Assembly: GCA_036758585.1 (NCBI GenBank)
Contig: DAIOWH010000007.1
Span: forward strand, 10,155-74,154
Length of the DNA stretch: 64,000 nt
DNA from: Planctomycetia bacterium
GTDB lineage: Bacteria > Planctomycetota > Planctomycetia > JALXBF01 > JBGPMX01
Direction: 5' to 3'
The notes beneath the pieces are model-generated. The model worked only from the letters and a program-made list of their open reading frames with translations. It did not search any database and was not told where the DNA came from. Below, in pieces: positions 32,471-33,929 of the stretch; position 1 is the first letter of the stretch, and every line of letters begins with the position of its first letter. A program made the position numbers and the translations under genes.

Positions 32471-32520
32471 AAAAGGTTCCTGACACCTTTTCCGGCCCCT
32501 AAGGGGGACTGACCCCCTTC
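32471..32520. repeat. Tandem REP-like hairpins AAAAGG-TTCCTGACA-CCTTTT and AAGGGGG-ACTGA-CCCCCTT
   Basis: Two adjacent inverted repeats; the second overlaps the end of the immunity-like gene. Confidence 0.6.
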
Positions 32521-32912
32521 CGTCCCCCCTTTTCTTCGTCCGTCTCTGAGGAATACATAGGAAAGTCAAGACTCGTCTCCTTAGGACCAAGTGTGTTCTC
32601 GGCGACCTTCAGGTGCGATGCGCCGACAAAGAAACGTTCGCCGTTTGACAGAATTCCGAAGAACGTGTGTGTCCCATCCTGTCTGATGCGCGAACGGGAT
32701 TCGAGTCGTGCGAGTTCGGTCTGAGTCGGGCTCACCAACCTGATCCCGTTAAGAGATTCTCGAAGCTCCACGTAAAAGACTCCGGAGAAAACCAGATCAA
32801 TGTTGAGGCTGTTCTGGGCTTCGCCTTCCTTGGCGCTACGCAACAACAGTTGAGCGTGGCTAACCGAGTAGTCCCAGATCAAAAACCTTCTGGGGGAACA
32901 AAAACTTTTCAT
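32499..32912 (-). CDS. Putative immunity protein
   Basis: 137 aa, low GC; 18 nt downstream of the toxin stop with a GGAG RBS; RRF.IWDYSVSHAQLLLRS...NIDLVF.GV.Y pattern typical of genes downstream of toxins. Confidence 0.7.
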   Translation of the reverse strand: MKSFCSPRRFLIWDYSVSHAQLLLRSAKEGEAQNSLNIDLVFSGVFYVELRESLNGIRLVSPTQTELARLESRSRIRQDGTHTFFGILSNGERFFVGASHLKVAENTLGPKETSLDFPMYSSETDEEKGGRKGVSPP

Positions 32913-32930
32913 ACGCTAAGGCTCCGTTGA

Positions 32931-33929
32931 TCATCGAAGAAATGGATTCCCCACCTTCTCCCCGTTGTGCCACCAAGTGATCCTGTCCCACCACTGAGGA
33001 TTCTGGTAGATCTGAGTGAGTTCCCAGCTAGTCGCTCGTGAACGGCTTAGGCCCCCACTACCTTCCAGCACCGCAGCCCAGTGGTCAATCTGTTTCCCGC
33101 CTGGGAGCGTGAGGTTGAAGTGTATCTTCCTCGATGAGTCGTTCATCACGTCCATGAAGTTATAAACAAAATCGTCACCTCCCCATTTGCGCCAACTCTG
33201 TGCTCCGACGCCCTCAGCGAACTCCTCGAGTCCCTCGCGTACACCAAGGGCAATTCCACAAGTGTTATGCACCAGCACCGGCGGCGCGCGAGGGGATTGG
33301 CTGACGAAGTAGTTGTGCAGGTCGGCGACCTCGAAGTTGTAGACCGCGATGCCTTCGGGGTGCGGTTCGAAGGTGGTGGCGAGGAGTTCGGCGCTGAGGC
33401 CGTCGGTGTGGGTGACGGTGTCGCCGGTGGCGAGGTCGCCGGCATTGACCCAGCCGCGGTCAGGTACCCAGAACGGGTGTTCGTTGGTGGTTTCGATCGT
33501 TTGTTCCGTGCCGTCGGCGTTGCGGATGCGCAGGATTCGCAGGTGGTCGCTCACGCGGCGGAACGTCTGCAACACCGCCTTGCCCGCGAGTTCGCCGGTG
33601 TCAGGATCTTTGGCGAGGACGAGATCCCGGTCGGTCACGTCTTCGATGTTCTTCGTCGTCACGCGGTAGCCGCCGATGGTCCATGTGCCGTCCGGCGCTC
33701 GTGGATGGGAATCTGGTTGAGCACATTCCTGCCTCGCGACCCCAGCCGGTCGCGATGCTGCCGCGCGAAGCGGTGGGCCGGGGACAGCCTTCAAGACGAA
33801 GAAGGCGGCGAACGCGAGCCAGCCGGCGACCCAGACTCGACGCGGCCAGACGCCGCCGACGAGTTCGCCAGCCGGCGGCGTCGAACCCGACCGACGCGAT
33901 GCACGAGGGATCCGATTACGTGAGATCAT
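32931..33929 (-). CDS. TM + pretoxin HINT domain + C-terminal putative toxin domain
   Basis: TTKNIEDV...VLAKD, TTNEHPFW (block B) and VYNFEVADLHNYFV...VLVHN|TC terminus; 110-aa low-GC C-terminal domain; AGGAG RBS. Confidence 0.85.
   Translation of the reverse strand: MISRNRIPRASRRSGSTPPAGELVGGVWPRRVWVAGWLAFAAFFVLKAVPGPPLRAAASRPAGVARQECAQPDSHPRAPDGTWTIGGYRVTTKNIEDVTDRDLVLAKDPDTGELAGKAVLQTFRRVSDHLRILRIRNADGTEQTIETTNEHPFWVPDRGWVNAGDLATGDTVTHTDGLSAELLATTFEPHPEGIAVYNFEVADLHNYFVSQSPRAPPVLVHNTCGIALGVREGLEEFAEGVGAQSWRKWGGDDFVYNFMDVMNDSSRKIHFNLTLPGGKQIDHWAAVLEGSGGLSRSRATSWELTQIYQNPQWWDRITWWHNGEKVGNPFLR

Follow-up and report, generated by a model that had tools for sequence, protein, structure and literature searches.

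What is encoded behind the pretoxin Hedgehog/intein (PT-HINT) domain of a small planctomycetal gene, where codon usage changes abruptly and stays changed through the following gene? The question concerns a 765-bp interval (positions 32499–33263) of a 64,000-nt stretch of contig DAIOWH010000007.1 from the Planctomycetia bacterium assembly GCA_036758585.1; the whole stretch is referred to below as the window. The interval comprises the last 110 codons of a 332-aa open reading frame (ORF), which specify the C-terminal domain (hereafter CT) that follows the PT-HINT domain, and the adjacent ORF for a 137-aa protein. We conclude, with a probability of roughly 85%, that the interval is a toxin–immunity cassette of a polymorphic-toxin locus. 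Very probably it represents the variable 3′ module of that locus, CT plus cognate immunity gene, which was recombined in at the conserved end of the PT-HINT domain. Systems of this kind have been described before, whereas the toxin family, together with its activity, has not.

The HINT domain ends with His-Asn, encoded on the minus strand by CAT AAC (33269–33264) and followed from 33263 by ACT TGT GGA ATT (Thr-Cys-Gly-Ile). The original prediction had placed the dipeptide at precisely these positions and had claimed a switch in codon usage immediately after it, persisting through the next gene. The switch is real and not a chance fluctuation. G+C content at third codon positions (GC3) is 0.855 in the upstream 2456-aa ORF and 0.846 in the HINT domain, falls to 0.609 in the CT and remains at 0.613 in the immunity gene (Fisher tests: p = 3.5e-5 for CT versus HINT and p = 1e-18 for CT plus immunity gene versus the giant upstream ORF). 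A likelihood scan limited to the passage from HINT to CT places the change-point at 33263–33275, at most two codons from His-Asn. Furthermore, the 765-bp interval has the lowest overall G+C content of the entire 64 kb (0.536 versus a mean of 0.639, s.d. 0.026), and equally low values were reached in only 0.2% of the segments compared, every one of which overlaps the CT/immunity locus.

In addition to composition, the junction is marked by a break in nucleotide homology. Relatives of the HINT domain were collected by a metagenome scan with the 332-aa protein, from which the best 80 loci were taken. The closest of these, L027, shares 72% identity at the protein level and 85% at the DNA level (413 nt, blastn), and its homology to the window stops at position 33259, just past the codons of the His-Asn-Thr-Cys motif (HN-T-C). 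Across the junction, identity amounts to 91% in the 96 nt before it and to 31% in the 54 nt after it; beyond this point L027 encodes an unrelated C-terminal domain, and there too the G+C content drops. Since L027 loses all similarity at 33259 and possesses a different CT, the CT was swapped at the HN-T-C junction. Neither the CT family nor the immunity family was found in any of the best 80 HINT-related metagenome loci. In all six of the other hosts considered, the G+C content of the CT/immunity cassette lies 8–23 points under that of its flanks. The homology break with L027 and the low-GC cassettes in other hosts thus provide an independent line of support for the earlier claim that CT and immunity gene make up one acquired cassette, the break in GC3 coinciding with that in homology. 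We consider CT plus immunity gene to be a genuine module that was recently exchanged at the HN-T-C junction. At this locus module swapping can be followed almost to the nucleotide, as homology stops only a few bases past the motif.

Judging from conserved gene neighbourhoods, the gene downstream of the CT behaves as the cognate immunity gene that it had been proposed to be. The closest CT homologue, in a metagenome-assembled genome of Armatimonadales (57% identity over the CT), is followed by an ORF 41% identical to the 137-aa ORF (E = 3e-27). A genome scan for CT loci, performed with a nine-sequence sub-alignment, revealed an immunity homologue directly 3′ of the CT in 12 of 15 loci (mostly from Bacteroidota, one from a deltaproteobacterium). 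Such a homologue is also present in all three loci of more divergent CT subtypes, namely those of Cellulomonas, Pirellulales and a human-gut metagenome. Altogether, the pairing recurs in 15 of 18 other loci, distributed over Bacteroidota, Armatimonadota, Planctomycetota, Actinomycetota, a deltaproteobacterium and the gut metagenome. Moreover, in a 207-aa protein from the Logan assemblies (P0208, a cluster of 10 members) CT and immunity protein are found in one ORF, in which the NPF-stop terminus of the toxin is replaced by 'EPVRM...'; this is a natural toxin–immunity fusion or read-through. Inspection of the N-termini of the immunity family (alignment A4) disclosed no signal peptide, transmembrane or hydrophobic segment, and searches of the family against Pfam, NCBIfam, PADLOC and PDB yielded no match. 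Because the immunity protein lacks an export signal, the target of the toxin would be expected to reside in the cytoplasm.

In order to find out whether the CT belongs to a named family, its sequence was compared with Pfam, NCBIfam, PADLOC and the PDB sequences, without a match. The original prediction had described a Trp-rich, 110-aa toxin domain devoid of recognised motifs; the peptide string that it quoted is correct, Trp accounts for 8 of the 110 residues, and no named family in these four collections covers the domain. The designation 'unrecognised' is nevertheless apt only in the sense that databases do not name the CT, since it is no orphan: when 1.84 billion cluster representatives were searched exhaustively with HMMER, 239 clusters (50% identity) emerged at E≤1e-3, 91 of them at E≤1e-10, and a remote relative exists among the EspK/GogB effectors considered below. 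The CT is therefore a member of a real and widespread family that no database names and that extends over at least five phyla and human-gut metagenomes. When 51 members were compared with Pfam, there was no match at E≤1 and no consistent family; the family profile had no match among PDB sequences, tblastn searches of phage and plasmid collections with CT members gave none either, and motif strings of the family retrieved nothing relevant from the literature or from the supplements of two toxin-discovery papers. A word-indexed homologue search with the CT alone returned no matches and missed even the window's own protein, while a profile query on the same word index brought back only proteins of at most 207 aa.

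The position of the domain within its carriers is highly uniform. In all 124 full-length matches, at most 6 aa separate the end of the match from the protein C-terminus, and the carriers include RHS, DUF6443-RHS, SpvB/TcdB/FG-GAP/RHS (Tc-toxin-like), PT-HINT and PT-TG proteins as well as short forms with only a signal peptide. In the HINT carriers, the CT begins 2–4 residues past the 'HN', mostly after an H-N-x-C junction. A separate observation concerns a human gut metagenome contig (L026, positions 3001–4405) in which short ORFs starting with 'MLVHNY...' or 'VLVHNY...', remnants of HINT ends, each with a different CT, lie beside an RHS gene. The region resembles an array of orphan toxin modules; in the first of these ORFs the CT is of the present family, and its immunity gene comes next.

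The CT could be modelled with AlphaFold2 when an alignment of 72 sequences was supplied (pLDDT 92.4, pTM 0.85; 49.5 pLDDT in a single-sequence run). The elements of the model follow the order β(3–7)-α-β-α-β(47–50)-α-α(77–87)-α-β(95–99)-β(102–104), which suggests a small α/β (Rossmann-like) sandwich, as deduced from the order of elements rather than from coordinates. Foldseek searches with this model against the PDB (released up to April 2026) and BFVD produced no match at E≤1e-3. The suggestion that the CT may be an uncharacterised fold is compatible with the lack of PDB and BFVD neighbours at that threshold, but the element order of the model points to an ordinary α/β architecture. The best PDB matches, none of them significant, were to SEFIR chains of 9ot1 (E 0.07–0.2, TMq 0.48–0.50), the TIR domain of SPARTA (8ifl_A; E 0.25) and TIRAP (E 1.7), with TM values of 0.34–0.50 over the top SEFIR/TIR neighbours as a whole. 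Nucleoside 2-deoxyribosyltransferases, phage ones among them, were included in the weak BFVD matches.

The only invariant polar residue of the family is Glu81 (alignments A1 and A2). L12, F15, N50, T78, W80 and L82 are invariant or nearly so, G7 and P107 nearly invariant, and G53 also belongs to the conserved residues (N50/G53). Several Trp residues are conserved, whereas no His, Arg, Lys or Tyr is, and Glu81 is the sole invariant acidic residue. In the model, the conserved polar residues appear to be located at C-termini of strands and N-termini of helices, where Rossmann-like enzymes bind their ligands.

The remote relative mentioned above is the C-terminal domain of EspK from enterohaemorrhagic Escherichia coli (EHEC) and GogB from Salmonella (prophage Gifsy-1; NF011913/NF011916). 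Two of the 51 CT members weakly matched NCBIfam NF011916 (EspK/GogB family type III secretion system effector) with E = 2e-4, below any trusted level; the CT of the window itself did not match this model. In the reverse direction, the hidden Markov model of the CT matched residues 367–428 of EspK (E. coli O157 Sakai) with 18 bits and, in register and with 8–18 bits, all five EspK-like proteins: EspK, GogB, an Arsenophonus protein, a 196-aa protein of an E. coli IncF plasmid and a protein from a phage contig. When profiles were compared with hhalign, CT residues 43–109 aligned to EspK residues ~367–430 over ~60 columns, with probabilities of 86% (alignment A2) and 94% (A1) and E from 5e-6 to 2e-7; a reversed-sequence control reached 0.1%, and the reversed, immunity and TIR controls together 0.1–1%. 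These sequence comparisons indicate that the C-terminal 60% of the CT is remotely homologous to the C-terminal domain of EspK/GogB, which is not the same as membership in that family. The two groups share the T-x-x-E-L motif, an 'FY..G' strand and the final strands, and in both the domain lies at the very C-terminus of a protein that is secreted. The Glu of EspK equivalent to E81 is E401, in the motif ITASEL. They differ in that N50 and W80 are not kept in EspK/GogB, in that only 60% of the CT can be aligned, and in that EspK and GogB, unlike the CT carrier, contain leucine-rich repeats and are injected into animal cells. No immunity-gene homologue was found near EspK-like genes, and for the EspK/GogB C-terminal region neither a Pfam domain nor a solved structure was found.

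It is conceivable, albeit far from assured, that the CT family forms, together with the EspK/GogB C-terminal domain, an enzyme superfamily not recognised hitherto. Its members would have a compact, Rossmann-like fold, with T-x-x-E-L supplying the one catalytic Glu, and would be employed both as an antibacterial toxin (in RHS, HINT, PT-TG and Tc-like proteins) and as an effector injected into animal hosts. If this were true, the substrate of the toxin (e.g. NAD+ or another nucleotide) would reveal unsuspected catalysis in effectors of EHEC and Salmonella; for these two enteric pathogens, whose type III effectors have an unassigned C-terminal domain, the link supplies a lead that can be tested. 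As for the wider occurrence of the EspK/GogB-type domain, it is found in a ~196-aa 'hypothetical protein' of an E. coli IncF plasmid (L020; CP101802.1, 31049–31639), and the same type of protein is carried by 53 other Escherichia plasmids, mostly conjugative ones. Further matches of this type come from Photobacterium, Bacillus, Burkholderia, Serratia, Yersinia and Arsenophonus plasmids.

The carrier of the CT deserves separate consideration. Its HINT domain matches PF07591 with E = 4.8e-22 (79.1 bits versus a cut-off of 27.7; residues 93–222 aligned to profile positions 9–136 of 137). It retains the terminal His-Asn (VLVHN, residues 218–222) and the block B motif T-x-x-H (TNEH, residues 148–151, encoded within 33468–33488), but begins with WTIGGYRVTT, so that Trp83 occupies the place of the N-terminal nucleophile Cys in the canonical CF.AGT. 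The N-terminal Arg-rich stretch and hydrophobic helix constitute a predicted Sec signal or signal-anchor. The 332-aa ORF is a separate gene directly after a giant gene for a surface protein with Ig-like repeats, an in-frame TAG parting it from the 2456-aa giant ORF, which corrects the locus context; the AGGAG sequence overlaps this TAG and lies 6 nt before the toxin ATG, and the junction is identical in three independent assemblies. At the other end, an 18-nt gap separates the toxin stop codon from the immunity ATG, which is preceded by GGAG at a distance of 9 nt.

The loss of Cys and CF.AGT is common to L027, L028, L029, L031, L036 and P0117. The layout of Arg-rich stretch, transmembrane helix and Cys-less HINT domain recurs with different CTs in genes of ~300–340 aa (L028, L029, L031 and L036), and L028 has its own GGAG-ATG without a giant gene upstream; P0117, a protein of 7908 aa, contains the same module as an in-frame fusion. 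As separate genes with the same layout exist elsewhere, the loss of CF.AGT appears to be a feature of a clade and not a local lesion. On these sequence features, we take the toxin ORF to be functional and not the broken end of a gene, and assign it to a clade of small HINT toxins that are Sec-anchored and lack the Cys; the locus thereby brings such a clade of membrane-anchored toxins to light.

By the mechanism that we envisage, the precursor would be exported through Sec and its HINT domain, through cyclisation of the Asn, would cut at HN|T (33264/33263), on its own C-terminal side, and free the CT. Such C-terminal cleavage may still be possible, because T-x-x-H and His-Asn are kept. The CT would then enter a competitor and act in its cytoplasm as an enzyme, while in the producer cell the immunity protein would bind and block it.

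Table 1. Features of the toxin–immunity locus and its surroundings (positions are those of the window).
Feature	Position	Strand	Description
Toxin ORF (HINT-CT)	32931–33929	minus	332 aa; small, free-standing
C-terminal toxin domain (CT)	32934–33263	minus	110 aa, residues 223–332; stop codon 32931–32933; from translation
PT-HINT (pretoxin Hedgehog/intein) domain	33264–33683	minus	Residues 83–222; Pfam PF07591
N-terminus of toxin ORF	33684–33929	minus	82 residues; Arg-rich stretch, then hydrophobic helix VWVAGWLAFAAFFVL (33792–33836)
Recombination junction	33259–33263	minus	End of blastn homology; change-point scan
Glu81 codon of CT	33021–33023	minus	Motif T78-S-W80-E81-L82; candidate catalytic residue; alignments A1 and A2
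Cognate immunity gene	32499–32912	minus	137 aa; homology to genes 3′ of other CTs
Gene junction TAGGAGtcgatcATG	33927–33941	minus	TAG of giant ORF 33939–33941, AGGAG 33936–33940, toxin ATG 33927–33929
3′ untranslated stretch after immunity gene	32410–32498	minus	RNA fold; likely distal cassette edge
Truncated DUF1559/prepilin-type gene, convergent	32120–32407	plus	95 aa; Pfam PF07596 (E=2.3e-8) and N_methyl
Giant surface-protein gene, upstream	33939–43569	minus	Big_13 Ig-like repeats and Ser/Thr/Gly-rich region; three ORFs

The coordinates of the locus are collected in Table 1. On the far side of the cassette, the RNA of 32410–32540, which reaches into the 3′ end of the immunity gene, is predicted to fold into several stem-loops (−49.7 kcal/mol, z=−2.2); a scan for consensus terminators and promoters found nothing meaningful around the cassette and no terminator in 32410–32498. 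The convergent DUF1559/prepilin-type fragment next to it breaks off at profile position 36 of 268 and is probably a rearrangement scar. Two near-identical palindromes, GGGACAGTCCC at 32020–32030 and GGGTCAGTCCC at 32505–32515, were also noted; they flank the DUF1559 fragment, with 0.1 expected by chance, and may represent a REP-like element or else a scar left by rearrangement at the distal margin of the cassette.

Upstream, the giant gene consists of the ORFs 42061–43569, 41081–42172 and 33939–41309, so that this highly repetitive gene would contain two frameshifts; it could be a pseudogene or the frameshifts could stem from assembly error. The giant gene is a possible partner of the toxin gene. 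A gene for an ECF-type sigma factor (43974–44699) is situated just upstream of it. Composition is unusual between the giant ORF and the HINT domain as well. The linker 33654–33938, which takes in the toxin ORF up to about codon 90, exhibits no codon-position periodicity in G+C content (0.68, 0.67 and 0.69 at the three positions), the giant ORF has a lower GC3 over its final ~30 codons, and over this wider region a single change-point falls at 34037. The linker 33654–34037 may thus differ in origin from the giant gene.

As regards the activity of the CT, we tentatively propose that it is an enzyme with a nucleotide-type substrate, in which it would most likely hydrolyse an N-glycosidic bond and so deplete NAD+ or nucleotides, in the manner of TIR domains, nucleoside deoxyribosyltransferases (NDT) and LOG proteins. 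A single invariant Glu, conserved Trp residues, the lack of conserved His, Lys or Arg and a putative cytoplasmic target are the reasons for which we prefer an N-glycosidase of nucleotides or NAD+ to a nuclease; the proposal is a doubtful one even so, drawing on weak resemblance and on the chemistry of TIR, NDT and LOG enzymes. Nucleases are the commonest cytoplasm-acting CTs of polymorphic toxins, and an RNase or DNase of unrecognised type would agree with a cytoplasmic immunity protein and with the UniRef name of the Rhodocytophaga protein P0151, which points to RNase A. That label was not reproduced, however, CdiA-CT was encountered neither in the profile search of PDB sequences nor among the Foldseek matches listed, and an α/β family having one invariant acid and no conserved His, Arg, Lys or Tyr fits neither acid–base nor two-metal chemistry. 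A nuclease, with the RNase A label taken into account, hence seems unlikely to us. A glycosidase directed at peptidoglycan, which a single Glu and richness in Trp might bring to mind, was set aside as the immunity family lacks an export signal and the fold is not lysozyme-like. The remote homology to EspK/GogB raises yet another interpretation, according to which the CT would be a protein-binding or regulatory module and the next gene a chaperone or partner: the C-terminal half of GogB has been described as a binder of Skp1 and FBXO22 and not as an enzyme (PMC3386239). This binding maps to an F-box-like region, residues 270–334 (PMC3386239), which lies upstream of and outside the homologous stretch (~418–477), and EspK/GogB have lost N50 and W80. 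Position after RHS, HINT or PT-TG, pairing with a gene for a small cytoplasmic partner and swapping of CTs are the defining behaviour of toxins and their immunity proteins, and no homologue of the partner gene is found beside EspK-like genes; a binding module is accordingly the most improbable of the readings considered here.

The locus itself might be a decaying remnant, with the HINT-CT ORF being the cut-off 3′ end of the giant gene and the cassette no longer deployed. Such a scenario would account for the in-frame TAG between the giant and HINT ORFs, the two frameshifts of the giant gene, the replacement of Cys1 by Trp, the linker 33654–33938 devoid of codon-position periodicity and the adjoining truncated DUF1559 gene, and in P0117 an equivalent module is indeed joined, in frame, to a protein of 7908 aa. 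Against it, both ORFs of the cassette are intact and have GGAG-type sites (AGGAG 6 nt before the ATG in the case of the toxin), every family-invariant residue is kept in the CT, and separate genes of ~300–340 aa with the same layout are found elsewhere (L028, with its own GGAG-ATG, and L036). We regard decay as quite improbable, less so than a binding module. Our preferred interpretation, that of a toxin–immunity cassette whose toxin is possibly an N-glycosidase, has to contend with several observations nonetheless. Toxicity of the CT, binding by the immunity protein and cleavage by HINT are assigned by analogy with other polymorphic toxins; the HINT domain is without Cys1; and, given the two frameshifts and the truncated downstream gene, the locus may be partly decayed. 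With regard to activity, the model has no significant structural neighbour, a comparison of the CT with a small plant-TIR profile in hhalign gave a probability of 0.1%, the CT bears only a loose resemblance to the TIR signature W-x-x-x-E and to the motifs of LOG and NDT enzymes, and the EspK/GogB relatives have no assigned enzymatic activity and are not known as cytotoxic enzymes. Polymorphic toxins are a known kind of system for which new CT families are regularly reported, and the cassette as such is therefore unsurprising. The family is well defined, its model is confident and has no significant neighbour among solved structures, and E81 is an obvious residue to mutate, so that the CT/immunity pair is ready for biochemistry.

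How does the locus compare with systems already known? The classification of PT-HINT polymorphic toxin systems is reportedly due to Zhang, Aravind and co-workers. As in those systems, a conserved HINT domain ending with His-Asn precedes a C-terminal toxin that is hypervariable and has an immunity gene adjoining it, the CT is swapped at a conserved junction, the composition of the cassette is foreign to the host, and orphan modules starting with '..LVHN' exist (L026). The locus departs from them in that its carrier is a free-standing protein of 332 aa with an Arg-rich and a hydrophobic segment instead of a long filamentous or RHS protein, in that its HINT domain lacks the N-terminal Cys and the CF.AGT strand, and in that its toxin domain has no Pfam or NCBIfam model.

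With TIR/SEFIR (STIR), NDT and LOG proteins the modelled CT appears to share a small α/β domain of alternating strands and helices and a single, essential-looking Glu within the helical segment after the third strand, with aromatic residues nearby. It is shorter than TIR, ends in a β-hairpin where TIR has αD-βE-αE, and the spacing between its Trp and Glu differs from that of the TIR motif. Membership in the TIR family was rejected at the sequence level, none of 51 members having a Pfam match to TIR, TIR_2 or SEFIR (E≤1).

CdiA-CT(Ykris) is built of two antiparallel sheets with His175, Arg186, Thr276 and Tyr278 (PMC5435912). Like the CT, it is a C-terminal toxin of ~110–120 aa in polymorphic toxin systems (PF18431; PDB 5E3E), from which the CT differs in its predicted α/β fold class, in the lack of a His/Arg/Thr/Tyr site and in its immunity family (CdiI is all-α). 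The automatic UniProt label 'Bacterial CdiA-CT RNAse A domain-containing protein' of P0151 was discarded, as no Pfam match was obtained at E≤10. No CdiA-CT structure appeared among the 50 Foldseek matches listed or in the family-profile search of PDB sequences, which presumably included 5E3E.

The CD38-like ADP-ribosyl cyclase (ARC) NADase toxins have the whole CD38 fold, of which a structure has been solved (Martinkus et al. 2025, PMC12605009). The CT was not assigned to them, since no CD38 or ARC chain was among the 50 Foldseek matches listed, provided that the ARC entry is in the PDB copy searched. As Glu-dependent, NAD-depleting polymorphic toxins with a cytoplasmic immunity protein, the ARC toxins offer a precedent for the chemistry proposed here for the CT.

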